IMG/VR virus record: IMGVR_UViG_3300021085_002857
Span: 1-64,000 of that record
DNA from: a virus
Lineage: Duplodnaviria; Caudoviricetes
Length of the DNA: 64,000 bases
Reading direction: 5' to 3' (one strand)
Part shown: positions 33,765 to 56,069 of the stretch, in pieces
Numbering within the stretch: position 1 is the stretch's first letter
Layout of the letters: every line of letters starts with the position of its first letter
Position numbers and translations under genes: made by a program
The notes under the pieces: model-generated
The model's database searches: none
What the model saw: the letters and a program-made list of their open reading frames with translations, nothing else
Told to the model about the DNA's origin: nothing

Positions 33765-33765
33765 A

Positions 33766-34314
33766 TTACATGTCTTTAAATAATTCTAAAAACAGATCAG
33801 CACCCTTGGCCTGATTTGCTTCCCATTCTTCTGCAGCATTTTCATCTGCAAAATCACTTGCATATTTTACAATACGAACTTTTTTATTAAAAACAGCAGC
33901 AACTTTTGCAATAGCATAACCTTCCATGTCAACTATATGACTATTTAATTCTGGTGGTGACATTACAAAATTATCTCCTGTAGATAACACCATATTATTT
34001 TCAGCAATTCGTAATGAAGCTTCAAATCCAGTATTCTCAAAAGGAGTTGTGCCAAGTTCTGCTTGTGGACGAGCATCCATATCTCTCTGTCGTACAATGC
34101 CTACATCATATATTTTACCCGCAAGCTCAGGTACAAGTGTACCTGCTGTACCATAATTAACAATTAATGAACAATCGTCCTGTGCTGCCGCTAGAGTTGC
34201 CATCATAGCTGCATTGACTTTGCCAACACCAGTATACCATACTTTAAATTTTTCAGGATTTAAACTACTGTGATCAGGTAGTTCGCCTTCCAATGCAACT
34301 AAGATATATATCAT
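33766..34314 (-). CDS. mtnN: 5'-methylthioadenosine/S-adenosylhomocysteine nucleosidase-like
   Basis: ALxxE, TGVGKVNAA, NYGTAG, TGDNF, VDMEG, SDFAD motifs. Confidence 0.85.
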   Translation of the reverse strand: MIYILVALEGELPDHSSLNPEKFKVWYTGVGKVNAAMMATLAAAQDDCSLIVNYGTAGTLVPELAGKIYDVGIVRQRDMDARPQAELGTTPFENTGFEASLRIAENNMVLSTGDNFVMSPPELNSHIVDMEGYAIAKVAAVFNKKVRIVKYASDFADENAAEEWEANQAKGADLFLELFKDM

Positions 34315-34730
34315 TATAGATCCTTTAACAATGCTTTTAGTTTTTTCTTTGACTTGCCTTTTACTTTGGCTTTTGAAATATCGTTATCTCCATCGCCCAC
34401 AACCACAATAGCAATCATGCCCATTGTTTTATGTGGTGAACACTGATACAAATATACGCCTGGTGTATCAAATGTCATTTCAACTTCTTTACCCAGTTTT
34501 GATTTACGTGGTGCATCCCATCCATCTGGTCCTGCAATAAATTCTACATTGTGACCTTTTGATGTTGGCAACCATGTGATTGTATCGCCTACATCAATAC
34601 GTGCAATATCTTCACTATATACCATCTTAGCACCATCATCACGCTTGTTTAGCATGTCAATAGTTAGATCTTCTGCATTTGCACTTGTTGCAAATAAAGC
34701 AAGTAAACTTGCGGTAATAATATTTTTCAT
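34314..34730 (-). CDS. pseudoazurin (type-1 blue copper protein) with signal peptide
   Basis: MLNK...GDTITW.PT.KGHNV, YQCSPHKTMGM (His, Cys, His, Met ligands); ANA signal cleavage site. Confidence 0.9.
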   Translation of the reverse strand: MKNIITASLLALFATSANAEDLTIDMLNKRDDGAKMVYSEDIARIDVGDTITWLPTSKGHNVEFIAGPDGWDAPRKSKLGKEVEMTFDTPGVYLYQCSPHKTMGMIAIVVVGDGDNDISKAKVKGKSKKKLKALLKDL

Positions 34731-36158
34731 TTATTCATCCTCTGGTTCATCTAATAAATAGGCCATCTCTGGAAAAGTGGCTCTAAAGTCAGTGCCTCTC
34801 TGGGCATCTAATTTCGTCAAATATTCTCTAAATTCAGGTAGTCTGCGTGTCCAGTCTTCGCTACGTGCAAAGCTAATCATTCCACGCAATCTTTTAATAC
34901 CATAGCTTGCATTTTCCCATTCGTCATATGTTACTTTGCCCTTGTGCCAACTAGGAACACCTAGTTCCCAATTTTCTTTCCACCACTCAATAAATTCTTC
35001 GTATTTGGCTTCACATTTGTCCATAAATTCATCTGGTAGTACTTTAACATTTAAGTGTCCTGGCCAATATACAAAGTGATAGTTGATACCACCTGCACCA
35101 AATGGCCACATATTTGTTTTGTGTAATCCACTCTCTGTTAGTTTCCATTTAAGGAAATCTGGAATATAGTAAATGTTAAGAGCGTTCACTGCACATGCAA
35201 TTGTAACTTCTACATTATTACTTGTTTGTGTATCTAGGCGTTTAAACATTTCCAATTGGTGATCCCATTGACTAGGGTATCTAATATAATCATTCATTGC
35301 ACCAATACTGTCAATACTGTAGTGGAAGCGTACCTTTTTAAAATGTTTCCATTGCTCTAACAATCTATCAGGTAACTCGATACCATTACTATTATATCGT
35401 ACTTCGATTTGATCTGCATATCCCATTTCAATAACTTTATCTAGGATTTCATAATGCTCGTCAATAACAGTTGATTCGCCACCAGCAAAATATAGTTGTT
35501 TAATGAATGGAATTTGTGCATAAAACTGTTCCCAAAACACTGGGTTATCTTTATGCCAGTTGTAACTTGCGCCAAATGTTTTGCCTTTATTTGCCCAAAC
35601 CATAGTTTCTTTAAGGCTCTCGTTAGAGATTTTAGGATATAATCCTTGCCAATCTTTTACCCAACCACTTGAATCGTGAGGAGAACACATTACGCATCCT
35701 AACTGACATTTTGTACCCATACGGATATCAATATATCTTAGTTTACTATTTGTGCTACCATCCTCATATGTTTCTTTTACAAGTTCATCAATATCAATAC
35801 CATCACGCATCCAATAGGCAGTTTCCCATTGGCGTTTACTCATGTGTCCTGCATCTTCTTCTTTATAACACTTTAGACAACTTGCTGGCTTTTGTCCTGC
35901 AAGCATCATTTTCCTTACACCTCGCATATATGTATTATTCCATGCGGTGCTTAAATCTGTAGTATTTAAATTGGCTGGCTTTCCGTCTTCTGTTTTAACG
36001 ATTCCAATTCTGCCGCCATGTTTCTTATCGTTGGTTGCTCCTACACTACTAGCATTTGCTGTACAGCATACTCGCATACTTCCGTCTGGTCTTGTGCTTA
36101 AATGTATCCAAGGCAAAATACAAAAGGTGTCACTGGGTAATTTTTGATCTTCTGACAT
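34731..36158 (-). CDS. N-terminal-twitch radical SAM protein
   Basis: FCILPW, RVCC, CLKC, CQLGCVMC, GGES, YNSN, YSID, DYIRYP. Confidence 0.92.
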   Translation of the reverse strand: MSEDQKLPSDTFCILPWIHLSTRPDGSMRVCCTANASSVGATNDKKHGGRIGIVKTEDGKPANLNTTDLSTAWNNTYMRGVRKMMLAGQKPASCLKCYKEEDAGHMSKRQWETAYWMRDGIDIDELVKETYEDGSTNSKLRYIDIRMGTKCQLGCVMCSPHDSSGWVKDWQGLYPKISNESLKETMVWANKGKTFGASYNWHKDNPVFWEQFYAQIPFIKQLYFAGGESTVIDEHYEILDKVIEMGYADQIEVRYNSNGIELPDRLLEQWKHFKKVRFHYSIDSIGAMNDYIRYPSQWDHQLEMFKRLDTQTSNNVEVTIACAVNALNIYYIPDFLKWKLTESGLHKTNMWPFGAGGINYHFVYWPGHLNVKVLPDEFMDKCEAKYEEFIEWWKENWELGVPSWHKGKVTYDEWENASYGIKRLRGMISFARSEDWTRRLPEFREYLTKLDAQRGTDFRATFPEMAYLLDEPEDE

Positions 36159-36166
36159 TAATTTTC

Positions 36167-36856
36167 CTATGTTTGATGTTTGACAAACTCATATGTAGTA
36201 TTAGATTCTCCAGGAATTTTTACTACGGATGTATATACATCTGGTTGTCTATTGTCAACGTATTTAGCCGCTTTTTTATCAAAGCCTGGTAAAGTACTAA
36301 AAGAAGTTTTAGGATCATACTTTTGCCAATCCATATTTTTACGCATTGCAAAGTCTGTTATTTTAGAACTTTCCTGCCATAGTAGTTCCCACATTCTATC
36401 GTAGTTTTTATAGCCTGGTCTGTAATCAGGATAGTGTAGTTCATCAAAACACATAACTTCGCTCCACCAAGCAAAACTTTTTTGTGGTTCCCTATATACT
36501 AGGAATATATAATCACCAGGAAAGTGATTATAGATATAGTCTAGATTAAAATTACGGGCAAAGAAATGACTTTTAATAATACGATATCCATCACCTGAGA
36601 ATACATTGTTGATGTCATCAGTTAATTTATGAGGTTCAACAAAGTTAAAATCTGTCCAATCCTCACCACAGCCCATACCAGGTCCCCAATAACTTCCTCG
36701 ATGACCGTTGTTGTCATCCTCTTTAGTTCTTGGTCTATGATATTGTGTTCTGTTTGGAGTTTCGTCTGAGCGGTCTGCTGGAAGTAGATGTCGCATTACA
36801 ATATCTATGCCGCTCCATTTACTTCCAGGAATTCCGCAAAACCATATGTTGTTCAT
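36167..36856 (-). CDS. sulfotransferase-like P-loop protein
   Basis: N-terminal GIPGSKWS loop, IIKSH, LVYREP resemble PAPS-binding motifs. Confidence 0.5.
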   Translation of the reverse strand: MNNIWFCGIPGSKWSGIDIVMRHLLPADRSDETPNRTQYHRPRTKEDDNNGHRGSYWGPGMGCGEDWTDFNFVEPHKLTDDINNVFSGDGYRIIKSHFFARNFNLDYIYNHFPGDYIFLVYREPQKSFAWWSEVMCFDELHYPDYRPGYKNYDRMWELLWQESSKITDFAMRKNMDWQKYDPKTSFSTLPGFDKKAAKYVDNRQPDVYTSVVKIPGESNTTYEFVKHQT

Positions 36857-36862
36857 ATTTTC

Positions 36863-37150
36863 CTACTTAAAATATTTTCCAAGGTAGTCGCCTACACCTG
36901 ATATTACGTCTTCTTTAATTGATTCAAAGTCAAGTTTGACTGAAACGTCAATCATATCTTCTCGATGCAATCCACCAAGCGCATCATGTTGTCCTCCGTC
37001 TATCATCATTAGATCATCTCTATAGAGTGTCATTTGTGTGTTGTCGGCTAACGTGATAGTGACCTCTATGATATAATCAGCAGGTATGGTATCCATACTT
37101 ACCTGATCAAAGATAAGATCAAAAGAACGGTCCTTGCGCTCAATAGGCAT
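36863..37150 (-). CDS. hypothetical protein
   Basis: 95 aa, AAGGA RBS, TAAATA at 37177-37182 upstream. Confidence 0.7.
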   Translation of the reverse strand: MPIERKDRSFDLIFDQVSMDTIPADYIIEVTITLADNTQMTLYRDDLMMIDGGQHDALGGLHREDMIDVSVKLDFESIKEDVISGVGDYLGKYFK

Positions 37151-37188
37151 TATAAAATTTCCTTGTACTGTGTTACTATTTACTATTT

Positions 37189-38031
37189 TTAGGTACCCGG
37201 TAAGTACCCAGTTAAACTGAGAGAAACTTTTACACTCATGCCAGCATTTGTACTACAATGATATACATGCTCAGGTAACTCATAAACATCACCACTTTTC
37301 CACCTAGGATAAAATGTGTTTGCCATTTGTAACATATGTCCCCAATGCCAATCTGTAATAAACACTAAGTATCTAACGATCTTACCGCCATCACATCTAC
37401 GTGTTTCTGCATTTGGATTCAAATGTTCATTTAGTCTGTACCAGTTTCCCATAAAGTCAAAGTGAAAAGGTAATGTCTGTCCAGGCAAATATGCCAATAA
37501 GCGTGGTAAGCATGTTTCCATATCCATACCCAATTCATCAAACATTTCTTGACCAATCATTTGCTTAATCTGGTTACTTGTGTCTCCATACAGACCCCAA
37601 TTATATTCACAATTGTTAGCCCAATTATATCCACATTTCATTGGCAAGTTTAATGTAAGCTCGTTAACGCCTGCATGATATGGTCTTTTTTCAGTAAATT
37701 TCTTCTGACATGTTGCTTCATTATCCAACATATACTGAATCCATTTATCTTTATTGTCCGATACCTGGCTGAAGTTTCCAATGTAATCTTGTGCAGGGTC
37801 ACGTTCTGTAGTTAAATCAGCACCCGTTTCTTCACAAAATTTAATCCATTCTTTGTCAGGTCTATCACGAAGAAAGTCAAATAGCGTTACTTCTGGGTAT
37901 CTCGCCATCTCACTATTCTTCATGTAATAGTTAATATCTTCTGGAACAGTTCCGTAATCACCCAATACTACTTTAAATTCTGTATTACCTGATTCCGACC
38001 ATTCTTCTCCTTTATTATTTTCTTCTGTCAT
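37189..38031 (-). CDS. cupin / Fe(II)-2OG oxygenase-like protein
   Basis: YLPGQTLPFHFD ... WKSGDVY ... HCSTNAG (HxD...H). Confidence 0.6.
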   Translation of the reverse strand: MTEENNKGEEWSESGNTEFKVVLGDYGTVPEDINYYMKNSEMARYPEVTLFDFLRDRPDKEWIKFCEETGADLTTERDPAQDYIGNFSQVSDNKDKWIQYMLDNEATCQKKFTEKRPYHAGVNELTLNLPMKCGYNWANNCEYNWGLYGDTSNQIKQMIGQEMFDELGMDMETCLPRLLAYLPGQTLPFHFDFMGNWYRLNEHLNPNAETRRCDGGKIVRYLVFITDWHWGHMLQMANTFYPRWKSGDVYELPEHVYHCSTNAGMSVKVSLSLTGYLPGT

Positions 38032-38049
38032 TTTAAATTGCTTCCAATA

Positions 38050-38724
38050 TTATGCGGTTACCTTTGCAACCGCCGCGGCTGCTGCCGCTTCAGCTTCAAG
38101 CTGAGCTTTTGATTTTCTGCCCCTCTTGGGCTTTAAATCAGGATTCAATTCATATGCTTGTTGGCGTAATCTTTCTGCTTCGGCTGCAAATTGATCTGCT
38201 TGTGCAATCAAAGTTTGTGCCATATCAACATCATCGATTTCAACTGGGCCTGGATCTGGATTAGCTACACTAGGCATTTCTGGTGCAGTTGATTCAGTTA
38301 GAGTTTCAGACTCTTGGCCTGCCATTCCCAATTGATCTTCTGGAGGAGATACCACTGGCTCACCATCTGTTTGCTCTCTAATAATACTGTTAAGTTCATC
38401 TAAAGATATTTGAACTGTATTATTAGGAGTCATTACAACATTACTTGTTTTTTGGTGTTGCAAACGATTAGTTTGGTGTAGAGTTTGTAGCATATTAGTA
38501 CCGTCTGTAAAAACAGTTCTTTCTGCATACTCATAGAAATTTGCACATGCTTGAGCACCTGGTGATTCAACTGCTGTAATAATGTTATCATGCATCCAGT
38601 CTGGAAGTGCATCTGTATCTACTACTAAGCAATGATCGGCATCATCTGGTAGTTCGCGGAATACCACGACTACTTTTTTTTGTGTATTGACTAATTGTCC
38701 TACATGTTTTATATTTCTACTCAT
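38050..38724 (-). CDS. conserved-type phage hypothetical protein with low-complexity tail
   Basis: IKHVG..VVVFRELP N-terminus, KPKRGRK and Ala-rich end. Confidence 0.75.
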   Translation of the reverse strand: MSRNIKHVGQLVNTQKKVVVVFRELPDDADHCLVVDTDALPDWMHDNIITAVESPGAQACANFYEYAERTVFTDGTNMLQTLHQTNRLQHQKTSNVVMTPNNTVQISLDELNSIIREQTDGEPVVSPPEDQLGMAGQESETLTESTAPEMPSVANPDPGPVEIDDVDMAQTLIAQADQFAAEAERLRQQAYELNPDLKPKRGRKSKAQLEAEAAAAAAVAKVTA

Positions 38725-38935
38725 TATTTTCACTCTCCTCTACAGGTTCTGTAGAGCCTTCCGTTGGTTCAGTTGCTGGTGTATTTGCTTTTACAAAAGT
38801 TACCAGTTTGGTAAAGCAATCTCCTACTTGAGTTGCTTCTGCCGCCTTAAATGCGCCACGCTGTGTCGCCAAATCGATTATATTTGCCGCTAAGACTAGA
38901 TCAGAAATGGCAATCTGTGTTTGCTCTTCGCTCAT
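38717..38935 (-). CDS. small hypothetical phage protein
   Basis: 72 aa, AAGGAG RBS, CATAAATA at 38970-38977. Confidence 0.75.
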   Translation of the reverse strand: MSEEQTQIAISDLVLAANIIDLATQRGAFKAAEATQVGDCFTKLVTFVKANTPATEPTEGSTEPVEESENNE

Positions 38936-38980
38936 TTTATTCTCCTTTTGAATAATTAAATACTATGTTTATTTATGGTA

Positions 38981-39262
38981 TTAGTTTCTTGCTAATTTAC
39001 TTACCATTAAATCTTTTTCAAATTGTAGTAAATCTTCACTTAATTCAAACCAAATTTGATATACACTATCACTTTTGTCTAAACTTCTAATATGATACAA
39101 ACCTGTTGTGTTTCTTATTAGTTCTTCCCATTCAACCTTTTCTTTGGTTTGGACAACTATAAGGACACGGTTACGCATCATCTCTAAAAGTAACTCAGTA
39201 CCACTTATTAATGCCAAGTCCGATTCGCTCAAACTGCCACCATTTTTAATTAACCTAATCAT
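38981..39262 (-). CDS. hypothetical protein
   Basis: Start reassigned to MIRLIK, overlapping the vWA stop. Confidence 0.6.
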   Translation of the reverse strand: MIRLIKNGGSLSESDLALISGTELLLEMMRNRVLIVVQTKEKVEWEELIRNTTGLYHIRSLDKSDSVYQIWFELSEDLLQFEKDLMVSKLARN

Positions 39263-40430
39263 AATGAATTGTAACCCCAAACGGAGACTGAATGCTATGC
39301 TTTGGATCACCATGTACAACAAATAGTGTATCACAGTAATCTGGGTTTCCCCAGGATCCCCAAGGTAAGCCGTCAGTGAACATGACTAATTGGTCAGGTT
39401 CTATGTTCTGTTCACTCAAATAGTTGAACACAACGTCAAAATCAGTGCCACCTCCACCAATAACTTCATATTCACTTAGGTTACGGCCATCGTCGCTTGT
39501 AAAGCAATCATCGCCATATACTCCTGTATCGAATTGGAAGATATGGATCTTGTAGCTCTGGTATTGGTCCATAATGCCTTGTACTTCACTAAGGAAGACA
39601 CGCAACATGTCTGCACTAATACTGCCAGATGTGTCTAGCGCCACACATATATTTAGCTCTTCGTCTCTATTCATGCCTGGAAATATAACTTGTCCGCTAC
39701 GTTTACTAGGACGCATAAATGTAAAGTCTGATTTTATTGAGCTTTCTAATTGTGTTCTAAGCACATCACGCCAATCCATTCTAGGCGCAATTAATTCATT
39801 AATCATACGTTTAACAGCCTCAGGTGCTTCTCCACCTGCAGCTTGTGTTGCTTGAATTACAGCTTGTTTAATTTCGTCTTGCAATGCTTTACGCTCTTCT
39901 GCAGACATAGGCTTAAACCCACCTTTGCCTTCGCCCTCACCTTCACCATCTCCTGATCCATCTAGATCTAAGTGAAAGTCCATGCCCATTGCTTCTGGCA
40001 TAGTTTGAAGTAGGTCATCATATATTTCATACGAGTTCCAACCTGTATACTTCCAATCTAAGCAAGGCTTGCCGCCATCTAGTTTATCTTCTCCAATTAT
40101 TTTACCTACATTTTGTTCAATAAGAGTCATGTTAATATTATAATCTGCCGCGGCATTATATAGTCTATGTAGTCGATCTCCACGTGCTTCCATGTGATCA
40201 AATACACAGTGTAGAACTTCATGTCCTACTAAAAAGTCAAGTTCGTCATCGTCTAGTCTATCAATAAACTGTCGATTAAACAAAAACTGACGACCATCTG
40301 TTGCCGCTGTAGGGCACCATTCACTCGCATCTTTTAATTTAAGACGGATGGCAAGTTGGCCAAACCAAGGGCGAGTGAGTAGCAGTCTTACTCTACTCTG
40401 TGTAATGCGTTCTTCAGCTGTTTTCTGCAT
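39255..40430 (-). CDS. metallopeptidase-vWA domain protein (MoxR partner type)
   Basis: TAATDG, HEVLH, LDTSGS MIDAS, GGGGTDF, FTDG. Confidence 0.88.
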   Translation of the reverse strand: MQKTAEERITQSRVRLLLTRPWFGQLAIRLKLKDASEWCPTAATDGRQFLFNRQFIDRLDDDELDFLVGHEVLHCVFDHMEARGDRLHRLYNAAADYNINMTLIEQNVGKIIGEDKLDGGKPCLDWKYTGWNSYEIYDDLLQTMPEAMGMDFHLDLDGSGDGEGEGEGKGGFKPMSAEERKALQDEIKQAVIQATQAAGGEAPEAVKRMINELIAPRMDWRDVLRTQLESSIKSDFTFMRPSKRSGQVIFPGMNRDEELNICVALDTSGSISADMLRVFLSEVQGIMDQYQSYKIHIFQFDTGVYGDDCFTSDDGRNLSEYEVIGGGGTDFDVVFNYLSEQNIEPDQLVMFTDGLPWGSWGNPDYCDTLFVVHGDPKHSIQSPFGVTIHYD

Positions 40431-40445
40431 GTGATGATCCTTCAT

Positions 40446-40488
40446 TAACTTACTCGTAGACTATACATGGTATTTGAGACGTTGTCAA
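40446..40488 (-). promoter_or_regulatory. early promoter with GTAAGTTA box
   Basis: TTGACA 40488-40483, N17, TATAGT 40465-40460, GTAAGTTA 40453-40446. Confidence 0.8.
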
Positions 40489-40491
40489 GCA

Positions 40492-40851
40492 TTAAATTGA
40501 AAGTTTAAAAAGCATAGCTTCTTCTGGGTTTTTAAAGTAGACCGCATGTGAATCATCTGGGTTTGCATATTTTTGTATTTCAAAATCTTGATGAAAGCAA
40601 TGTGTTTTACACCATTTTTGAGCTTCTGTATACTTACCTCTGATGTCTACTTTTGTTGCAGTGGACTTCCATTTAGTCTTATATTCAAATATATCTACTG
40701 GAAGTACGTCTTTAAAATCTAATCCATATAAACGGATATTAGTTCTTTGTCGAGGGGAGTAGAGGGAGAGGTCTACCTGCTCTCCCTCCTTTAGTTTAGG
40801 CGTCAAGTACGAGTCGACCATAACGGTTAAAATACTCCTCAAATCGTTCAA
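40492..40851 (-). CDS. hypothetical protein (start uncertain)
   Basis: ORF between MoxR and vWA genes. Confidence 0.6.
   Translation of the reverse strand: MNDLRSILTVMVDSYLTPKLKEGEQVDLSLYSPRQRTNIRLYGLDFKDVLPVDIFEYKTKWKSTATKVDIRGKYTEAQKWCKTHCFHQDFEIQKYANPDDSHAVYFKNPEEAMLFKLSI
40762..40788. other. 9-bp stem hairpin just downstream of the MoxR stop
   Basis: GAGGGAGAG / CTCTCCCTC with 9-nt loop; no U-tract on the coding strand. Confidence 0.4.
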
Positions 40852-41911
40852 TTTTATCTTGTTTTGGCATCAACTTATATTGTTGCATTGCGATACGGCT
40901 TGCCATAATAACCATTTCAGTCTCAAAATTATCCATCATAAATCCGATAAAGTTTGAAAAACTTTTGTGGAAGTTATCCATCTTGCCTGATTTTTCGCCG
41001 TTAATATTACGATCACGCAACTCATAACATAGGCTAGTAGCAAGTGCATACGCCGCACTAATTTCTGATGTCTCAAGTTTCTTAACTTTACCATCCAATA
41101 CATCTTCTGGCATTGGCAAGTCACTAGCAATTTGACGATGTGACATAAACTTTACGGCAATGCCTTCTCCAATACATCCTGCAACTAAATCTGTTTGCAA
41201 TCCTGCACTCAAGTCTTCACTATCTTCTAGCAATTCTGAAACAAATGTCCATGATCGCGGTGTGGAAAAACCACGTGAGCTAGATTGCGGATCGAAGTTA
41301 TATAAGTCGCCTTTTGCAAAACTAATATAACCAACAACATCTGCATCGATATTGTTTTCTGGAGCAACAGCCCAGTTCAACCAATCTTGGAAATCAACAC
41401 GTAGTTCAAAGTGAACAAAACGATTCTCAAGTGGCTTAGGCATACGATATGTAACGCCTTTGTCAGTTTCGCGGTTACCAGCGGCAATAATTACCACATT
41501 GTCTGGCAATACATATTGACCAATTCGACGATTTAGAATAAGCTGGTATGCGGCAGCCTGTACACTAGGTGCAGCACTATTAAGTTCATCTAGGAACAAA
41601 ATAACAGTATCATACATAGCTGCCATTTCAGCAGTTGGTAGATCTGCGGCTGGAAGCCAAATCATTTGTTTAGTTTCCATGTCTGGTGCTGGATAACCAC
41701 GCAAATCTGTAGGCTCAAATAATGCAAGACGCAAATCAATTACATGAGTGTTACCCATGACACCACTTGCACCGATTCCTTCAACAAGCTCTGATTTGCC
41801 AATACCTGGAGGTCCCCAAAGGAATACAGGGCGTTTTTTCTTAAACGCTCGTGTAATAAGTATTTTTGCTTCTGAAATCTTTACAGTACGTGTTTCTGTA
41901 ATAGTAGACAT
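40796..41911 (-). CDS. MoxR-like AAA+ ATPase
   Basis: GPPGIGKS, LFLDELN, AAGN, LENRF; start MSTITE behind AAGGA RBS. Confidence 0.9.
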   Translation of the reverse strand: MSTITETRTVKISEAKILITRAFKKKRPVFLWGPPGIGKSELVEGIGASGVMGNTHVIDLRLALFEPTDLRGYPAPDMETKQMIWLPAADLPTAEMAAMYDTVILFLDELNSAAPSVQAAAYQLILNRRIGQYVLPDNVVIIAAGNRETDKGVTYRMPKPLENRFVHFELRVDFQDWLNWAVAPENNIDADVVGYISFAKGDLYNFDPQSSSRGFSTPRSWTFVSELLEDSEDLSAGLQTDLVAGCIGEGIAVKFMSHRQIASDLPMPEDVLDGKVKKLETSEISAAYALATSLCYELRDRNINGEKSGKMDNFHKSFSNFIGFMMDNFETEMVIMASRIAMQQYKLMPKQDKIERFEEYFNRYGRLVLDA

Positions 41912-41932
41912 TCGACATTCCTTTTTGTTAAC

Positions 41933-41982
41933 TAACTTACTCTTACACATTACAGTAAGACGCATTGGTTGTCAAGAAAAAA
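41933..41982 (-). promoter_or_regulatory. early promoter with GTAAGTTA box; 29-bp exact copy of 1207-1235
   Basis: TTGACA 41975-41970, N17, TAATGT, N6, GTAAGTTA 41940-41933. Confidence 0.8.
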
Positions 41983-41999
41983 AAGACAATAAAATTAAA

Positions 42000-42308
42000 T
42001 TAATTTCTGTTATATCTCACGTATAGTTCTTTTATACTGAGAGACGTATCAGGTCTTCTGTCTTTCTTTTTCGTATGTTTGGATTTTTTAATTTGTACAG
42101 TATAAGCACCAGTATTTGGATCTAGCCTACTGCATCCTGTTGCATATTCGCTATTATGCGTCCATGCTATAATTTCGTTTGATATTTGTCCATGTCCAGT
42201 AACTATTATAGTACTTTTGATACCATTATAAAAGCAATTAGAAAGATGTGTATTAAATATATTCCAAGCGTTATGTACTGTATATCCATGCAAATCCAAG
42301 GATGTCAT
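42000..42308 (-). CDS. stand-alone Smr-domain protein
   Basis: LDLHG, IIVTGHG, NxGA motifs. Confidence 0.8.
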   Translation of the reverse strand: MTSLDLHGYTVHNAWNIFNTHLSNCFYNGIKSTIIVTGHGQISNEIIAWTHNSEYATGCSRLDPNTGAYTVQIKKSKHTKKKDRRPDTSLSIKELYVRYNRN

Positions 42309-42601
42309 TTGCTTACTATCCATGCATCTACTCCTCCTAGCTTGGCCATAAATGCATCACGTTCACTGAATAACATTACTTTTTTTGTGTCAAAATAATA
42401 GGGCATCTTCATTTTGCGTTGTAAATGAATTATTTGTCCTGTAGTTATTCTATTATCTAAAAGAAATGTCCAATGGTCAAAGTTTTCACAGAAAACCTTG
42501 CATCCGAGTTTAGTAAGTCTTAGTGAGTCTTTACTCTGAAATAACTTCTCTTCTCCTGTGTTACCAAGAGAGCTAATCAGTTTATTTTTTATCTCCATCA
42601 C
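42305..42601 (-). CDS. hypothetical phage protein
   Basis: 98 aa, overlaps neighbours. Confidence 0.7.
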   Translation of the reverse strand: MMEIKNKLISSLGNTGEEKLFQSKDSLRLTKLGCKVFCENFDHWTFLLDNRITTGQIIHLQRKMKMPYYFDTKKVMLFSERDAFMAKLGGVDAWIVSK

Positions 42602-42881
42602 GTGTAACTACTTCTCCTTCAAGTAGTCTTACTACTGTAAAATCGTCAGTGTTAAACTGTTTATTTAATCTTGCAGCCAAATTAAAAGCATGTCCACTGT
42701 TACTGAAACTTATCTTTTTGTATTTGGGTCCTGGATAGTTTACTAAAGTACTTAATGTTCTTAAATTAATTGGTTGTCCTTTGTAAAAAACAGCGTAAAT
42801 TGCACTTGCCTCTAAGATTTGCTCTGAGTTATAGTTCTTATCTACGTGTTCCAGTAATATAGTTGGTTTTGGTCTAGCCAT
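42582..42881 (-). CDS. hypothetical phage protein (MARPKP..., PGPKYKK)
   Basis: 99 aa, AAGGA RBS. Confidence 0.75.
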   Translation of the reverse strand: MARPKPTILLEHVDKNYNSEQILEASAIYAVFYKGQPINLRTLSTLVNYPGPKYKKISFSNSGHAFNLAARLNKQFNTDDFTVVRLLEGEVVTRDGDKK

Positions 42882-42924
42882 GTTTTAATTCTTATCCTTA
42901 CTACGTATTGTCCCCCGACATACT

Positions 42925-42932
42925 TATTTATA
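42925..42932 (-). promoter_or_regulatory. T4-type late promoter consensus TATAAATA
   Basis: Exact TATAAATA in an intergenic gap upstream of 42881. Confidence 0.5.
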
Positions 42933-42954
42933 AGAATTTTAATTAAAACATGTT

Positions 42955-43359
42955 TTATTGATTGTCTGGGCTTATTAATCTAAGTCCAGTACCTTGATGA
43001 ACAATACAAGTCGTATTAAACTGTGGAGCAATGAATATAAAACTATATTCTCCAGTAATTGCATTAATTAGTAATGCGGTGTATTGAAAAATACCTGGAT
43101 CTTGTGGATACTTTTCTCCAGTTACAAAAACTTGTTTACCTGTGGATATCATCATGTCTCTTATAACTTGGCTATTACCACATAACATACCTGTTTCATA
43201 ATTTTGTAATGGCGCCTCTTGTGGTGTCAGATCAGGTTCTGACAGATCAGGTTCTGGTAACGTTTCTATATCAGGTACATCAGGAAGAATATCTACGCCT
43301 AATCCTTGAGCGTTTACTTGTGTTGCTAATAAAAGCAATATAGCTATATATCTAATCAT
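42955..43359 (-). CDS. secreted hypothetical protein
   Basis: Signal peptide (VNA), Pro/Asp-rich linker. Confidence 0.65.
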   Translation of the reverse strand: MIRYIAILLLLATQVNAQGLGVDILPDVPDIETLPEPDLSEPDLTPQEAPLQNYETGMLCGNSQVIRDMMISTGKQVFVTGEKYPQDPGIFQYTALLINAITGEYSFIFIAPQFNTTCIVHQGTGLRLISPDNQ

Positions 43360-43786
43360 ATTTTTTAGTCCTTTTAAGTTGTAAGTTCATGTCCCATTCT
43401 GTTAAAAAAGGACCATTGTACTCATAGTTCTGTAACGTAGATAGTCTAGGACAGAAACTAGGTAACCATTTCTTAAACTTTATTATATAATAGCCTGCAG
43501 CATGTGGTTGCTTCATACTTGGCTTTTTATAAAATATAGGCAATTTTTCATGCTCGCCATTATATACTATACTACTATTAGTAGGATAACCTTGACATGT
43601 TTTGAGATCTGTTTCTTGCTTTTCTATGCTACCAAAGTCATTAAGATTATCTATATTTGTAGTTGTTTTATCTAATTGATTAAAGAACTCATAGCCAGTA
43701 GATACTTTTCTAATAGTACCCACTTTACCAATTCTGGATTCTACAATCCAAAATTTATCTTCTATAAGCTCAATAGTATTATACAT
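43352..43786 (-). CDS. hypothetical phage protein
   Basis: 144 aa, AGYYIIKF..W..SFCP motif. Confidence 0.7.
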   Translation of the reverse strand: MYNTIELIEDKFWIVESRIGKVGTIRKVSTGYEFFNQLDKTTTNIDNLNDFGSIEKQETDLKTCQGYPTNSSIVYNGEHEKLPIFYKKPSMKQPHAAGYYIIKFKKWLPSFCPRLSTLQNYEYNGPFLTEWDMNLQLKRTKKYD

Positions 43787-44109
43787 TATACGTTACTATG
43801 TGATCCATCACAAGTTTTAACTGCACTTTGTGTTTTGCCACAAGTACATGCCGCACCCAAACGTTTAAAATCTGTAACATTTTGTACTCTAAATGCACGC
43901 CAACCTTCTGCCTTGACATCCCATACACTTACTACTTCCTCGTTTAGTTCACGAATCTTTTTTTGTGTCATTGTGTCTTCTTTTATAGCTTTAGGCAAAA
44001 CACGTGGATGCAAAGTACAATTCATTATCCTTTGCTCTCCACTAATTTTATTAAATGTGACTTCAAAAACTCCACGTTTAAGTTTATCAATATATTCGTT
44101 ATGTGTCAT
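43786..44109 (-). CDS. WYL_2/Sm-like phage domain fused to a CDGSH-type Fe-S motif
   Basis: FxKxxGExRxMxCTL...WDxxxxGWRAFR then CTCGKTQSAVKTCDGSH. Confidence 0.7.
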   Translation of the reverse strand: MTHNEYIDKLKRGVFEVTFNKISGEQRIMNCTLHPRVLPKAIKEDTMTQKKIRELNEEVVSVWDVKAEGWRAFRVQNVTDFKRLGAACTCGKTQSAVKTCDGSHSNV

Positions 44110-44284
44110 AATATCCAATTCTCCATTTTTCATAAATTTTCCATCCTTCCCACAATAAAGCTAAAATAATTGCTGTAATGATTCCTCCACCAAATAGTGT
44201 CGCAAACAAAAATGTATGAAATAAATTGGAAAATACTAATATTGCAATCCAATCATACCATTTAAAAAGATGCAGATCAGTCAT
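44099..44284 (-). CDS. small membrane protein
   Basis: 61 aa, two TM segments. Confidence 0.6.
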   Translation of the reverse strand: MTDLHLFKWYDWIAILVFSNLFHTFLFATLFGGGIITAIILALLWEGWKIYEKWRIGYYDT

Positions 44285-45269
44285 TGTATGCCTTATTCAA
44301 GTATACTGCATGATCATTCACTCTTTCAGCCAATCTAGCTAAGTCATGTTTGCCGCATAAACGCATAAGGTGTATACCTACTTGCGACTTACGTTCTTTC
44401 TGTACTTGCTCTACGATAGCTTTATCTAACTGTTCCTTTACATTATCGGGCTGTGCAGTAAGATCAATAATATGCACATTGCGTTGATAGTCTTCCAACA
44501 CACGATGCTCATCATTGTTATGATCTACCCAACGCTGTAACATAAAATTATTCCAATTGTAGCCTTTTGTGTTGCGATCCTCAAATGCTTCCATCATACC
44601 TACTTTATTTTTAGTGCCTTTCTTACGAGCACCTGGACATGCACTAAACACATTATCAGCAGTATCACCACGTATGCACTTTTCAAACAATAACCATTCA
44701 GGATCGCCTATCAGTTTAGGCTCTTTAGTTTTCTTATCAATAACTGGCTTACCACGGTCATCAAAGATACCTTTGGTTGTAATAAGTTGTCCAGTAATAC
44801 CATTGTATTGTGTTACGTTCTCATTAAGCAATTGATAAAAGTCACTGTCACTACTTACGATGCAATGTTTGTCGTTAGGATGATTTTGTATCCAACGTGC
44901 AATAAAGTCATCTGCTTCACAAATACTATCCTGTAATACTGTTACATTTGTTTTGTCACGCATAAATGTTTGGAACTCATCAAAAGCATCCCAAAACTGC
45001 TGATCTTCCTGTTGCTCACGATCTGTTTTGGCGGCAATAGCTTCCTTACGATTTCGCTTGTAAGGCTCATAAAAGTCCTTGCGCCAGCTTCGTCCCTCAA
45101 GACACATTACAACATGTGAGCCATCTTGATCACGCCATACTTTATTAATACTATTAAACATAATATGATATGCCATACCAATTTTAGTACTCATGTCATC
45201 GCCACGTACAACATGTCGAGCTCGCATAAACATATTAGCCGCATCTACCAGTATATAGGTATTACTCAT
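44277..45269 (-). CDS. 5'-3' exonuclease / T4 RNase H-like flap nuclease
   Basis: LVDxxN, WRKxxYxxYKxNR, EADD, SSDSDFYQL, GDxxDN. Confidence 0.9.
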   Translation of the reverse strand: MSNTYILVDAANMFMRARHVVRGDDMSTKIGMAYHIMFNSINKVWRDQDGSHVVMCLEGRSWRKDFYEPYKRNRKEAIAAKTDREQQEDQQFWDAFDEFQTFMRDKTNVTVLQDSICEADDFIARWIQNHPNDKHCIVSSDSDFYQLLNENVTQYNGITGQLITTKGIFDDRGKPVIDKKTKEPKLIGDPEWLLFEKCIRGDTADNVFSACPGARKKGTKNKVGMMEAFEDRNTKGYNWNNFMLQRWVDHNNDEHRVLEDYQRNVHIIDLTAQPDNVKEQLDKAIVEQVQKERKSQVGIHLMRLCGKHDLARLAERVNDHAVYLNKAYND

Positions 45270-45461
45270 TTAAACCTCATTTAGTTCGTTTGTTAATTTT
45301 GCGATTTCTTGTTTGATATGTAGTTTTTTGGTTTTAAGTTCTTTTACTTTAAATTCACTTACACTTATTGGTAATGATAAAATTTCATTATCTAAACTAC
45401 GGTGTTTTTTCTTAAGACTTTCGATATATCGAAATTTACTATTCACTGTTCCTGTTCCCAT
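45270..45461 (-). CDS. DUF465/YdcH-like coiled-coil protein
   Basis: HxxLDxEI...LKxKKLxIKxEI. Confidence 0.6.
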   Translation of the reverse strand: MGTGTVNSKFRYIESLKKKHRSLDNEILSLPISVSEFKVKELKTKKLHIKQEIAKLTNELNEV

Positions 45462-45483
45462 AATAGTCTCCTGTTATAGTATT

Positions 45484-45512
45484 ATTATACAATAAAGAGT
45501 AAAGGACGTCAA
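45484..45512 (-). promoter_or_regulatory. sigma70-type promoter
   Basis: TTGACG-N17-TATAAT, AGGAG RBS before 45461. Confidence 0.75.
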
Positions 45513-45799
45513 GCATTATTGACGTCCTCTGCAATACCCCTACATAAATTGGTAAACCAAGAATCAATTATTTCTTCTTCGTCTTTTCCACTATATCCAG
45601 CTTCTAAAAGTTGTGCAACAAATAGTTGATTCCAGTCTAATTCAAAATATCCTTGTCCTGGGTTTTCAGGATCAATATTGACTTCTACGACTTTTACAAA
45701 TGGTTCCCCACGTGCTGTTGCTTTTTCTTTTTCAGTAAGAATACTTTGTTCTTTTTTAGTTGTTTTTAATTTTTGAGTTAGCTTATTCCACCATCCCAT
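45509..45799 (-). CDS. hypothetical phage protein
   Basis: 96 aa, GYFELDWN motif. Confidence 0.75.
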   Translation of the reverse strand: MGWWNKLTQKLKTTKKEQSILTEKEKATARGEPFVKVVEVNIDPENPGQGYFELDWNQLFVAQLLEAGYSGKDEEEIIDSWFTNLCRGIAEDVNNA

Positions 45800-45802
45800 A
45801 AT

Positions 45803-46906
45803 TTACCATCCGATCTGTTCCCAAGGAACGTTTTTATTACCAAAGTGACCATAAACACAGTTTTCACTATATCCATAATAGTTGTACATGTCAAATCTGT
45901 CAATGATTCCTTTTGGTGTTAAATCAATATTATCTTCAATGAACTTTTGAATTGTTCTATTGTGTCCATTTGAATCTACATAGATACTTGTTGGTTCCTT
46001 AACACCAATAGCATATGACAATTGAATTTGACACCAATCAGCCATGTTGTCTGCTACTACATTCTTTGCTAACCATCGTGCCATATATGCCGCACTACGG
46101 TCTACTTTGGTAGGATCTTTACCACTAAAAGCACCACCGCCATGAGGAGCAAAGCCGCCATAGGTATCAACAATAATTTTGCGTCCGGTAAGTCCGGTAT
46201 CGCCGTCAGGACCGCCAATAACAAAGTTACCAGTAGGATTAATATGCCATATTGTATTTTTATCAATTAGATCTCCTAATATTTCTTCTGCCGCATCACG
46301 TGCAGGTGCCACAGTACTGTGAACAAAACCTTCTTTATGTTGATGTGACACAACAATTTGATCAATACGCTTTGGTTTACCGCCCTCGTATTGGACACTC
46401 ACTTGTGACTTTGCATCAGGTAATAAAAAATCATATCCATCATTACGATACTCTTTTAGCTTTTTTAGTATTTCATGCGAATAATGAATTGGCGATGGCA
46501 AAAATGCGTCATTTTCGTTACTTGCGTAACCAAACATTAGTCCTTGGTCACCTGCACCAAAGTCATCAGTACCCAAACCAATGTCTGCACTCTGACTATG
46601 TAATTTATTGTTGATGGTTTTATTATCAATTGTTAATTTTTCCCAATGGAAACCATCTTGTTCGTATCCAATCTCTTTAACTTTGTCTCTAACAATTTGT
46701 TCAACTTCATCGTTAGTAACGTTAAAGTTTTTTACTTCGCCCGCCAATGTTACATAATTGGTGGTTACAAGTGTTTCAACCGCGACACGAGTAGTTTCGT
46801 CGCCTGCTTTAAGTCCTGCGTCAACTAGTGCATCACTAATTTGGTCTGCTACTTTATCTGGGTGTCCATCACTGACACTTTCGCTTGTAAAAATATAGTC
46901 GTTCAT
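45803..46906 (-). CDS. metK: S-adenosylmethionine synthetase
   Basis: FTSESVxxGHPDK, GAGDQG, GGGAFSGKDPTKVDRS. Confidence 0.97.
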   Translation of the reverse strand: MNDYIFTSESVSDGHPDKVADQISDALVDAGLKAGDETTRVAVETLVTTNYVTLAGEVKNFNVTNDEVEQIVRDKVKEIGYEQDGFHWEKLTIDNKTINNKLHSQSADIGLGTDDFGAGDQGLMFGYASNENDAFLPSPIHYSHEILKKLKEYRNDGYDFLLPDAKSQVSVQYEGGKPKRIDQIVVSHQHKEGFVHSTVAPARDAAEEILGDLIDKNTIWHINPTGNFVIGGPDGDTGLTGRKIIVDTYGGFAPHGGGAFSGKDPTKVDRSAAYMARWLAKNVVADNMADWCQIQLSYAIGVKEPTSIYVDSNGHNRTIQKFIEDNIDLTPKGIIDRFDMYNYYGYSENCVYGHFGNKNVPWEQIGW

Positions 46907-46920
46907 ATTATATTATTTTC

Positions 46921-47319
46921 CTATAATGTTTTTATTTTTGTAGAAATTGTTTGTATGAGACTTCCTAGCCCATTTCTACGTTGTACTGAAAGAAGTTCTT
47001 TGATTCCCAACTTCTCAAAATCTTGTTTAGTTAATTGCTTTGCTTCATCCAATGGGATATCGCTAAAACAATCAGCAACTACACTAGTGATACCTTTTGT
47101 AATCATAGCATCGCTATCATAGTAAACTTGTACTAAATCCTCTTGTACTCCGACATCGATCCAAATTTGGCTCATACATCCGTGTACTAGTCTATCATCT
47201 GTACGCAATTCAACTGGTAGATTGGTTGGTTTTTTTGCCAAGTCTATCAGATGAACTAATCTATCATCATCATCCAAGAAACTAAATTCCTCAGTCCATT
47301 CATTTATTTTTGTATTCAT
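46921..47319 (-). CDS. sufE: SufE-family Fe-S assembly sulfur acceptor
   Basis: VxGCxSQIW, DSDAxITKG, LSxxRxNGL. Confidence 0.9.
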   Translation of the reverse strand: MNTKINEWTEEFSFLDDDDRLVHLIDLAKKPTNLPVELRTDDRLVHGCMSQIWIDVGVQEDLVQVYYDSDAMITKGITSVVADCFSDIPLDEAKQLTKQDFEKLGIKELLSVQRRNGLGSLIQTISTKIKTL

Positions 47320-48428
47320 TTCTTTTTAAAGACGTATACGCCTTCCCATTTTTCTCGACCTTCTAGTTTGTCGTTGCCAACACCTGGTCGTGTGTTTAGC
47401 ATCATCTTAATCGTTTTTGTATGCTCGAAGCCCACCTTGCCAGCCGTCGAAATCCAGTCTTCCACAACATTGAATTCCTTGTTTCCATAGCTTTTATAGT
47501 CAGCAATGTTCGTAGCAAATATTCCTTCATCATTTAGTCCTTTGTGTATGTTCTTCATTGTTGGAGCAACATACCCTTCAAACCATTCGTCTAATGTAGT
47601 ATAGTTAACCATGCATTGTGTAGGTTCATCACTATACTTTTCTAAGTTAAAATAAGGAGGACTACTAAATGCAAGATCAATATCTTCGCTTTGATAATTT
47701 TCACTTACGTCTTTTATAATTTCACTATCACTGTTTAAAAAAGTGTTCAAATAATTTAGATAATTAAATGTTTCGGTATTGGGGTCGGTGCCCACATAGG
47801 TGTATCCCATGTTACTACTACTTATACCTAATAATCTACCACCATATCCACAACTGTAGTCATAAACTCTTCCCCACATAACAGGACACAAATGCTCTAC
47901 AATAGCACGAGCGTTCTGTGCTTTAAAGTTTGTTACATTCTCACCAGTAACTAGTTCTAATGCTCTACGCATCGCTGTAGGATATACTAACTTGTTACCT
48001 TCTCTGAACTCAAAACAAATACGAATAGCACGTTTAAGTTTTTTCTCATCATTGAATCTGTCTCTTAATGAGTTGGATCCTCTTCCTTTGGGCTCGGCAG
48101 TCTGCATATTAGTAAAAATAAATCTATTAAGGGTTTGTCCTGCGTTATTACCCAATCCGAGCCTTCCATTCTGCACACCATTATAGGACTTAGTTCTAAA
48201 GGATTTAATTTTTTGACTTATTCCTTGCTCAGTGAAATATGTAATAGGAACAAGATTTCGATTACGATATAACTCAAAAACCCTGTCAATAGTGTCACTA
48301 GGATTAGCATCATACACCTCTTTAGTAAATGTGTCAAATTGGGGATAAAGGTCTTCATACCCTGTAAATTCATCACTGAAAATATGTTCATCTTTTATTC
48401 CCCAAAAATCGTATATACTATCTATCAT
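47316..48428 (-). CDS. amino-methyltransferase (N4-C/N6-A DNA methyltransferase-like)
   Basis: DYSCGYGGR motif I, SPPY motif IV. Confidence 0.8.
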   Translation of the reverse strand: MIDSIYDFWGIKDEHIFSDEFTGYEDLYPQFDTFTKEVYDANPSDTIDRVFELYRNRNLVPITYFTEQGISQKIKSFRTKSYNGVQNGRLGLGNNAGQTLNRFIFTNMQTAEPKGRGSNSLRDRFNDEKKLKRAIRICFEFREGNKLVYPTAMRRALELVTGENVTNFKAQNARAIVEHLCPVMWGRVYDYSCGYGGRLLGISSSNMGYTYVGTDPNTETFNYLNYLNTFLNSDSEIIKDVSENYQSEDIDLAFSSPPYFNLEKYSDEPTQCMVNYTTLDEWFEGYVAPTMKNIHKGLNDEGIFATNIADYKSYGNKEFNVVEDWISTAGKVGFEHTKTIKMMLNTRPGVGNDKLEGREKWEGVYVFKKK

Positions 48429-49090: not shown

Positions 49091-49177
49091 TATAAACCTG
49101 CTTTACGTATTTTGTCTTGGTCAATAGGTGCTTTCATTGCCTTTTCAAGTTGAGTTTTTTGTTTGGTATTAAGTTTA

Positions 49178-50071: not shown

Positions 50072-50100
50072 TAGTAACTAAACTCCTGTTAATTTTAACC

Positions 50101-55686: not shown

Positions 55687-56069
55687 TATTTTTCTCCAAG
55701 TCTATTTAGAAATCTTTGCTTTTCAATACGCTCTTGTACATTCCATTGCAAATTAAAATCGCTTTGTTCTACCATCTCTTGAATCATATCAGTTAAAACT
55801 TGTATTTGTAACTTTTGTTCATGAATGATTTCAGTTATATTAATACTTCCATCTGGTGTCTCCTGGATAATATCTCCTGAAACTGTTAAGTCAGAAGGTT
55901 CATCTCCAGTAATGGTTATGTTATTCCAATCTATATTATATCCACTATCATCAGTATCAATATAGTCCACAACAGAAATAACATTAGGAGCGTCAGTATC
56001 AACGTACATTGTATCCATACCAGGTGTAGTTACATCTATTGTATATTTTTCATTATTAGAAGTTTCCAT
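55686..56069 (-). CDS. hypothetical protein
   Basis: Start reassigned to METSNN; C-terminal coiled coil. Confidence 0.6.
   Translation of the reverse strand: METSNNEKYTIDVTTPGMDTMYVDTDAPNVISVVDYIDTDDSGYNIDWNNITITGDEPSDLTVSGDIIQETPDGSINITEIIHEQKLQIQVLTDMIQEMVEQSDFNLQWNVQERIEKQRFLNRLGEK

Follow-up and report, generated by a model that had tools for sequence, protein, structure and literature searches.

A short MTA/SAH-nucleosidase-like gene in the radical-SAM array of a marine jumbo phage and its probable place in a loose, clade-wide support kit

We analyzed the first 64 kb (64,000 nucleotides, called the window below) of the IMG/VR virus record IMGVR_UViG_3300021085_002857, a linear record of 91,045 bp that carries a large array of radical S-adenosylmethionine (SAM) genes. 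Inside the array lies a short gene resembling the 5'-methylthioadenosine/S-adenosylhomocysteine (MTA/SAH) nucleosidases, next to a pseudoazurin gene, and the same window contains metK, the gene of SAM synthetase, and sufE. Our preferred reading, to which we give a probability of about 0.55, is that this mini-MTAN (MTAN for MTA/SAH nucleosidase) is a fixed member of the array of radical-SAM genes of the N-terminal-twitch (N-twitch) type, that MetK and SufE are separate auxiliaries, and that all of them belong to a loose kit spread over the clade rather than to one co-acquired module. Phage auxiliary genes are usually read singly; here about 20 radical-SAM enzymes share a genome with genes that would see to their supply and disinhibition. 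The DNA comes from a T4-like jumbo phage of marine origin, with a genome of ~350 kb as calculated from the completeness of 25% estimated by CheckV for the record. That the sequence belongs to a phage, as the original prediction on this DNA had it, was confirmed: it is an IMG/VR virus record, three relatives sharing genes with it (G006, G007 and G008) have a gene for gp23, the major capsid protein of the T4 type (267-333 bits), and one of them, G006, found through the proteins of the record, is a complete genome of 342,607 bp with direct terminal repeats.

The nucleosidase gene (33766..34314, minus strand) codes for 182 aa and matched PF01048 PNP_UDP_1 with 53.6 bits (cut-off 25.1). Its best NCBIfam match was NF004168 'nucleosidase' (107.4 bits, under the cut-off of 129), and the scores against NF004079 and TIGR01704 were 57.7 and 34.6 bits (cut-offs 169 and 73.8). 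All 37 PDB chains retrieved with phmmer were MTA/SAH or aminodeoxyfutalosine nucleosidases or their relatives, and the ME and SDxAD motifs of the Escherichia coli MTAN are kept in the alignment (E131 and D154 of the phage protein). E11, M130-E131 and D154 were invariant when 35 homologs were aligned. We take M130-E131 and D154 to be Met173/Glu174 and Asp197 of E. coli, and E11 presumably stands at the position of Glu12, judging by inspection of the N-terminal sequence, which falls outside the E. coli alignment. Two mutants of the E. coli enzyme, Glu12Gln and Asp197Asn, are named in the titles of matched PDB entries. The AlphaFold model made from the homolog alignment had a mean predicted local distance difference test (pLDDT) score of 89.6, and the Foldseek matches listed for the top 50 ranks were all MTAN-family nucleosidases, with template modelling (TM) scores by query length of 0.65-0.85. 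The family comprises 912 proteins at E < 1e-5; the 120 of them that were listed are all 170-202 aa long and of metagenomic origin (some from Tara), several being encoded on contigs of >300 kb. By sequence and predicted structure, the protein appears best described as a trimmed, virus-borne subfamily with the MTAN fold.

The gene sits in a tight block of the minus strand. First in the block is an N-twitch radical-SAM gene of 475 aa (34731..36158, minus strand; NF033640 N_Twi_rSAM 417 bits, cut-off 170; PF04055 and an N-terminal SPASM match), then come the pseudoazurin gene, the nucleosidase, a second N-twitch gene of 371 aa (32649..33764, minus strand; NF033640 253.3 bits) and a third of 417 aa (31399..32652, minus strand; 294.4 bits). 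The junctions within the block are tight, varying between an overlap and a gap of 1 nt, and it is closed by a terminator-like hairpin at 31351-31322 (a consensus-type match). The nucleosidase and pseudoazurin genes had been placed inside a radical-SAM operon (33766-34730), and both are in fact intact at exactly these coordinates, flanked by NF033640 genes of the same strand.

We compared the neighbourhood of the nucleosidase in 17 related viral loci from IMG/VR, with 53-67% identity to the window protein (two of them, L011 and L018, look like duplicates). At ten of these loci N-twitch radical-SAM genes bracket the gene upstream (~475 aa) and downstream (~420 aa), and in eight of the ten they adjoin it directly on both sides, at protein identities of only 58-67%; at an eleventh the contig ends just past the 475-aa gene. 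Compared with this conserved block, in which the 417-aa gene is the constant downstream partner, the window has two extra genes inserted, one for the copper protein and one for the 371-aa N-twitch paralog, the latter missing from that position in most relatives. The short form of the nucleosidase is absent from the complete relative G006. That genome has a canonical MtnN (NF004079, 196.9 bits, above the cut-off of 169), followed by a HIT-family gene and then by an N-twitch radical-SAM gene only 27.5% identical to the 475-aa gene of the window. Two further records, G033 and G036, repeat the spacing of G006 with a PNP_UDP_1 gene of full length and a radical-SAM ORF (open reading frame) of ~490 aa. 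These two non-orthologous MTAN-family genes adjoining N-twitch radical-SAM genes argue, in our view, most strongly for a functional tie, and they point to at least two recruitments of a by-product nucleosidase beside radical-SAM genes, each from another homolog.

With the bacterial MtnN/Pfs enzymes that clear 5'-deoxyadenosine, the phage protein shares the MTAN fold and the residues at the positions of Glu12, Met173/Glu174 and Asp197. It differs from them in being ~50 residues shorter, in scoring under the NCBIfam cut-offs, in being encoded by a virus within a radical-SAM block and in having a large marine family of its own. Two papers (PMC8102628, PMC10986504) describe 5'-deoxyadenosine as a by-product and inhibitor of radical-SAM enzymes that is processed by MTA/SAH nucleosidase, and the removal of an inhibitory by-product is also the job that we propose here. 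The phage enzyme would most likely cleave 5'-deoxyadenosine, formed at each radical-SAM turnover, and probably also the SAH released by phage methyltransferases and B12-dependent radical-SAM methylases, the products being adenine and a sugar. The original proposal that this nucleosidase clears radical-SAM by-products held up as far as the predicted fold, the catalytic residues and the position in the radical-SAM block of diverged relatives go. We consider the evidence for the link between nucleosidase and radical-SAM genes good, and this link the best-supported part of the reading.

A different role would be that of a pathway enzyme, whose substrate would be one specific intermediate, containing adenosine or a deazapurine, that the flanking radical-SAM enzymes produce. 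Two relatives of MTAN, futalosine hydrolase and aminodeoxyfutalosine nucleosidase, act on pathway intermediates in menaquinone synthesis. Models of the former match the N-terminal part of the window protein (TIGR03664, E 3.6e-10) and structures of the latter are among the fold matches; the gene is also tightly coupled to two particular radical-SAM orthologs, and at locus L015 it adjoins a transporter of the Vut_1/YhhQ type. However, every pathway-specific model scored far under its cut-off, and the finding of a canonical, general-purpose MtnN in the equivalent place beside an N-twitch gene of G006 argues for a generic activity. We consider a dedicated pathway role improbable.

In the by-product role that we prefer, the nucleosidase would free the radical-SAM enzymes from product inhibition in a host possibly devoid of a canonical MTAN. 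The MTAN equivalog TIGR01704 was above its cut-off in none of five marine alphaproteobacterial genomes (three Rhodobacteraceae, one Pelagibacter and one Levibacter) and in 7 of 14 control genomes. The five were chosen as candidate hosts solely through pseudoazurin similarity, a weak choice; that the phage supplies an MTAN activity missing in its host is for this reason a lead rather than a result. PF01048 was also tried as a marker of host MTAN and matched in four of the five, an uninformative result since this family also covers phosphorylases. As for the adenine released, a purine phosphoribosyltransferase-like gene of 183 aa (56056..56607, minus strand; PF00156 46 bits) may offer a possible salvage route. 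We rejected its identification as Apt, the adenine phosphoribosyltransferase: the best NCBIfam match is weak and xanthine-phosphoribosyltransferase-like (41 bits, cut-off 138).

The array that the nucleosidase would serve is large. The original prediction counted 17 enzymes using iron-sulfur (Fe-S) clusters and SAM, and we reproduced this count for the window: 16 ORFs match PF04055 at E <= 0.01, 14 of them above the Pfam cut-off, and the seventeenth is a QueE-like ORF (49178-50071). A six-frame search of the whole 91-kb record gave 20 PF04055 matches. Radical-SAM counts from this type of search are lower bounds, since it missed one radical-SAM gene of the relative G011 (L012:10537-11220) that hmmscan places over the cut-off with 38.3 bits. 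At least 11 paralogous NF033640 genes lie in window 12041-36158 (e.g. 14787-16013, 21672-22895, 25015-26310 and 34731-36158), and their SPASM/twitch part is N-terminal, before the radical-SAM core, the reverse of the usual order. The same interval also holds Asp/Asn beta-hydroxylase-like genes and two ORFs of ~480 aa without a family match. Beyond the window, in a stretch of the same record that we call L001 (L001:3977-4759 corresponds to record positions 66976-67758), there are two B12-binding radical-SAM genes of 578 and 628 aa (L001:12611-14347 and L001:16599-18485) with a peroxiredoxin-like gene between them (L001:16046-16615). Each turnover of a B12-binding radical-SAM methylase consumes two SAM and yields SAH as well as 5'-deoxyadenosine.

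The other two genes, metK and sufE, are adjacent (45803-47319), as had been claimed, and both are intact at exactly those positions on the minus strand. MetK (45803..46906, minus strand, 367 aa) matched TIGR01034 with 424.8 bits (cut-off 309.4) as well as phrog_1569, has the three-domain architecture with PF00438, PF02772 and PF02773 all above their cut-offs, and is 78% identical to the copy of G006. We also tried it as a host marker and discarded it, its best cellular relatives being only ~55% identical and taxonomically scattered. The enzyme would raise the SAM supply for all SAM users in the infected cell, that is, DNA modification, methyltransferases and radical-SAM enzymes. Both genes appear to belong to a unit headed by a QueE-like radical-SAM gene (49178..50071, minus strand; phrog_2076 'QueE-like radical SAM' 178 bits, with weak matches to QueE models) of a 7-deazaguanine/replication module. 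Between a promoter-like site at 50129-50101 (11/12 matches) and a terminator-like hairpin at 45530-45501 (12 pairs), both of them consensus matches only, we found the QueE-like gene, two ORFs of no assigned function, a methyltransferase-like ORF of 370 aa (47316..48428, minus strand; phrog_12517 and phrog_498 'DNA methyltransferase', E 4e-7; no match in Pfam or NCBIfam), sufE, metK and, at the end, a small conserved ORF of 96 aa (45509..45799, minus strand; phrog_13349). In G006 the order is folE, queE, metK, the homolog of the 96-aa ORF and a 5'-3' exonuclease gene, with queE directly upstream of metK. This conserved order of queE, metK and exonuclease indicates that metK belongs to a backbone of 7-deazaguanine and replication genes. 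Unlike G006, the window has sufE, the methyltransferase-like ORF and a second ORF between queE and metK, by either an insertion in the window or a loss in G006.

The sufE gene (46921..47319, minus strand) codes for a sulfur acceptor of the SufE/CsdE family of 132 aa (PF02657 98.9 bits, cut-off 27). Its start overlaps the methyltransferase-like ORF by 4 nt and it lies 14 nt upstream of metK. The scores against NF006792 SufE (60.6 bits, cut-off 160) and TIGR03391 CsdE (52.5 bits, cut-off 136.4) are both under the subfamily cut-offs and do not resolve between the two assignments. Cys48 aligns with the persulfide-accepting cysteine of E. coli SufE (1mzg, 3g0m). The protein would accept persulfide sulfur from a cysteine desulfurase, here that of the host and in some relatives an IscS/SufS of their own, and speed the supply of Fe-S clusters. 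SufE is present in four of the five marine alphaproteobacterial genomes mentioned above.

We compared 63 viral sufE loci in IMG/VR. At 12 of them metK adjoins sufE, and the 96-aa ORF is downstream of metK in 11 of these 12; the methyltransferase-like ORF is upstream of sufE in three of the 63. Other genes recur as well: an FdxA-type 7Fe ferredoxin (Fer4 plus DUF3470) is no more than three genes from sufE at 13 loci and an S-adenosylmethionine (AdoMet) decarboxylase gene directly adjoins it at 11 (for these two, sufE loci L058-L076 and L025-L077), pseudoazurin is within three genes at six, and DoxX and Cox11 are neighbours at six and four. The complete G006 has the AdoMet decarboxylase and the 7Fe ferredoxin elsewhere in the genome, and its sufE is 247 kb away from metK along the record, or ~94 kb by the shorter way round. 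MetK and SufE may plausibly act as general suppliers; they are neither dedicated to the radical-SAM array nor co-acquired with it. Viral sufE has been reported before, in passages of PMC8940887, as a stress-related marine auxiliary gene. As here, those passages have sufE without sufS on viral sequence, and they read the host SufE as limiting for Fe-S assembly. The differences are that here sufE belongs to a defined clade of jumbo phages with many Fe-S enzymes and has varied neighbours (metK, FdxA, AdoMet decarboxylase, pseudoazurin), and that IscS/SufS is encoded in some relatives.

These comparisons bear on the idea, put forward originally, that by-product removal, SAM supply and the building of Fe-S clusters were acquired as one logistics module (taken here to include the electron carrier) sustaining an active, high-flux radical-SAM island. 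In its favour, the four genes are intact, on one strand, within 14 kb and among 17 radical-SAM-type genes. The radical-SAM/nucleosidase block was also found in twenty sequencing runs, six of them RNA-labelled, and in four RNA-labelled runs, each of a different study, there are contigs over 29-30 of the 30 bins of window 31000-50100. RNA-labelled libraries may contain DNA, and contigs give neither strand nor level, so this coverage is not counted as transcription; nor can flux be read from gene content, which leaves the "active and high-flux" part unsupported. The synteny comparison contradicts co-acquisition: metK and sufE adjoin at only those 12 of 63 loci and are apart in G006, where the four genes are at 37, 72, 302 and 320 kb, and a cupredoxin was found beside the nucleosidase at none of the 17 loci. 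Even in the window, genes for a MoxR/VWA pair (matching the phage families phrog_1297 and phrog_1314), Smr, WYL_2 and an exonuclease separate the two pairs, and the promoter- and terminator-like sites are distinct as well. A single acquired module is, on this evidence, very unlikely.

The electron carrier drops out of the radical-SAM logistics on a second count as well, its export. The pseudoazurin gene (34314..34730, minus strand) codes for a precursor of 138 aa with an N-terminal signal peptide (PF00127 Copper-bind 60.4 bits, cut-off 21.2). TIGR02375 pseudoazurin gave 98.4 bits, under its cut-off of 109.85 and yet the best cupredoxin model by >50 bits. Residues 21-131 align to residues 2-111 of the mature pseudoazurin 1bqk (E 1.9e-23), with the His/Cys/His/Met ligand positions kept. 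The first 19 residues have the features of a Sec-type leader (basic start, hydrophobic core, Ala-x-Ala end) and the alignment to the mature protein starts directly after them. The protein is thus predicted to be exported to the periplasm, where it cannot serve or reduce the cytoplasmic radical-SAM clusters. Among the compared loci it is inserted beside the nucleosidase here only, and by this criterion it is a passenger, apparently unrelated to radical-SAM support; in relatives the pseudoazurin gene adjoins a DoxX gene, as it does at 37 kb of G006. Its closest cellular relatives are from marine Rhodobacteraceae (67-79% identity), then from Pelagibacterales and SAR116, and it also matches phrog_515, the cyanophage plastocyanin. 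Like the latter (PetE), it is a type-1 copper protein of small size that has a leader peptide and whose gene is an auxiliary of a T4-like marine phage. It differs in type, being a pseudoazurin with its nearest relatives in marine Rhodobacteraceae and other Alphaproteobacteria, which suggests that it would serve respiratory, not photosynthetic, electron transfer. By this analogy the likeliest role is that of a respiratory auxiliary, a copper electron carrier for export whose gene came to this place by chance and which most likely boosts the respiratory electron transfer of the host. In the contigs of four RNA-labelled runs, the summed depth over the pseudoazurin (window 34185-34821) was several-fold above that of its neighbours, and two of these runs had loose contig ends at 34326-34336. 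Contig depth is unsuited to ranking genes; together with the loose ends, the raised depth indicates that the cassette seems to be present in other contexts at >=95% identity.

Other genes of the clade could complete the support of the radical-SAM enzymes. Outside the window, an Fpr-like ferredoxin/flavodoxin-NADP reductase gene (L001:3977-4759, minus strand; NF008178 127 bits, under the cut-off) overlaps a radical-SAM/SPASM gene (L001:4744-5706) and is a candidate for the supply of reductant to radical-SAM enzymes; its homolog in G006 is 2 kb from sufE. The relatives with the highest radical-SAM counts seen were G008 and G009, with 23 and 21 matches. Near sufE, G008 (L264:3165-14857) has a SufS-family desulfurase (TIGR01979 466.9 bits, just under the cut-off of 475.1) and FdxA (145.1 bits, above 135). 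G009 (L265:729-3837) has a full-length IscS (721.9 bits, above 548), an Nfu-like protein and Apt (165.8 bits, above 125). The stretch of G008 also contains genes for a Cox11-like protein, ClpX, IF-3 and the ribosomal proteins S21 and L7/L12. The finding of these helpers makes a clade-wide support kit plausible, though one assembled differently in each lineage. Such a kit would consist of the nucleosidase, MetK and SufE plus the FdxA, Fpr-like reductase, Nfu-like protein and Apt of the relatives, and the radical-SAM array would benefit from it. A bolder version, which we hold only tentatively and think rather less likely than the loose kit, is a near-autonomous radical-SAM economy that tracks the array across the jumbo-phage clade, with MetK for SAM, the mini-MTAN or an independently recruited MtnN and Apt for the by-products, SufE with IscS/SufS and the Nfu-like protein for the clusters, and the Fpr-like reductase feeding FdxA. 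If this were true, the virus would provision its oxygen-sensitive Fe-S enzymes, at least 20 in number, largely by its own means.

In order to compare gene content with radical-SAM number, we drew up a table of 37 viral records, each of >=30 kb, to which either the nucleosidase or sufE had led (G000-G010, G013 and G015-G039), leaving out G011, G012 and G014 (9.6-18 kb). The median number of PF04055 matches per 10 kb was 1.37 in the records with the short nucleosidase (n=17) versus 0.39 in those without it (n=20), and 1.2 with metK (n=20) versus 0.26 without it (n=17). Both contrasts had Mann-Whitney p values of ~1e-4 and kept their significance after dropping four likely duplicates.

Several facts weigh against the loose kit, and some of them speak at the same time for the view that these are unrelated auxiliary genes, near the radical-SAM genes by an accident of a gene-dense jumbo genome. 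On this view MetK would feed DNA methylation or hypermodification, or buffer SAM against host defences; the nucleosidase would serve purine salvage; and SufE would serve host Fe-S repair under stress, viral sufE being stress-related according to PMC8940887, or a tRNA-modification sulfur relay of the CsdE type, for which the similar scores of the SufE and CsdE models (60.6 versus 52.5 bits) and the 12 tRNA genes of the record can be adduced. The density contrasts ignore shared ancestry and come from records that are mostly fragments, and they largely reflect genes sharing one genome region in one clade. Neither metK nor any PNP_UDP_1 gene was found in G007 (300 kb, 86% complete, 8 radical-SAM matches) or in G008 (243 kb, 55% complete, 23 matches). 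Of the 30 sufE-bearing records of >=30 kb, 16 have three radical-SAM matches or fewer, such as G037 (136 kb, one match) and G025 (132 kb, three). Radical-SAM genes are within 10 kb of sufE at only 13 of the 63 loci, the immediate neighbourhood of this gene takes at least ten forms, and a search for cysteine desulfurase (PF00266) gave no match in G000-G006, that is, in records including this fragment and the complete G006. The nucleosidase itself is under every NCBIfam MTAN cut-off and ~50 residues shorter than the canonical enzyme (182 versus ~230 aa), and at six of its 17 loci there is no N-twitch radical-SAM gene within 10 kb; L015, with its transporter, is one of the six.

For metK, too, there are facts of this kind. 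Its conserved neighbours here and in G006 are queE, folE and the 5'-3' exonuclease, with a methyltransferase-like ORF in the window, and not the N-twitch array. The gene is common in small phages: it turned up in 137 phage records of GenBank, mostly of streptococcal phages of 35-60 kb (90 are of Streptococcus phages). In the three records tested, its place is in a module of replication or methylase genes, and no PF04055 match was found. The originally proposed link of metK with radical-SAM number is contradicted by these three records, which carry metK and have no such match. The MetK proteins of temperate Streptococcus, Faecalibacterium and Microcystis phages (phrog_1569) resemble that of the window in being full-length, 39-49% identical and part of a replication/DNA-modification module; the difference from the three tested records is that here at least 20 radical-SAM genes are in the genome and metK follows a QueE-like radical-SAM gene. 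For the nucleosidase, however, chance is hard to invoke, with two non-orthologous MTAN genes beside N-twitch radical-SAM genes and a third case, at L012 (another of the six loci just mentioned), in which the nucleosidase gene overlaps a small radical-SAM gene (227 aa, PF04055 38.3 bits). The same clade also gathers FdxA, the Fpr-like reductase, IscS/SufS and the Nfu-like protein. We judge that a set of wholly unrelated genes is somewhat unlikely, and keep the reading of a nucleosidase fixed in the N-twitch array with MetK and SufE as separate auxiliaries. What the genes are, which residues they keep and how they are arranged and distributed is shown by the analysis; the substrates, the flux and the gain for the radical-SAM enzymes are inferred.

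If the biochemistry holds, this would be a clear case of virus-encoded cofactor logistics for the own enzyme array of the virus. It would also provide a compact MTAN of 182 aa for structural and enzymological work, and a useful additive for the in vitro reconstitution of the uncharacterised N-twitch radical-SAM family. The analysis corrects at the same time an attractive over-reading, given that the copper protein and the single acquired module fall outside the story. Our literature search found no paper linking phage radical-SAM arrays to metK, sufE or mtnN. The closest precedent is that of the pelagimyophages, T4-like marine myoviruses that, according to passages of PMC7029224, gain and lose radical-SAM cassettes in a variable region. 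Their genomes are smaller and those passages name no support genes, in contrast to the 17-23 radical-SAM matches in each genome or large fragment, with nucleosidase, MetK and SufE, seen here. The main text of a survey of marine jumbo phages (PMC9123017) does not contain the terms adenosylmethionine, iron-sulfur, Fe-S, pseudoazurin or plastocyanin, and its supplements may list such genes. Among GenBank phages, a near-identity DNA search with window 33000-48500 gave no match, and protein searches gave two records for sufE and three for the nucleosidase, all at <=40% identity; with matches so few and distant, the named phages give no close context for these two genes.

The window genes are tightly packed and mainly on the minus strand. 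Towards the end of the 91-kb record there is a PAAR/M15 peptidase gene, and the 12 tRNA genes are clustered in its tail (L002:1591-8702); G006 likewise has tRNAs and a transfer-messenger RNA (tmRNA; L097:1184-1530). Genes of the 7-deazaguanine pathway, FolE and QueE-like, were found in the window (49178-50071 and 56617-57318) and in G006 (70523-72098), which suggests a modified DNA. Beside the radical-SAM array there are also a subtilase of 911 aa (window 51733-54468), an HtrA-like protease with a PDZ domain (8830-10068) and a phosphopantetheinyl transferase (4133-4441), a company that would fit peptide or natural-product maturation. Finally, parts of an ABC transporter of the glycine-betaine type, an OpuAC substrate-binding protein and a permease, are encoded on the record at L001:8865-10738.

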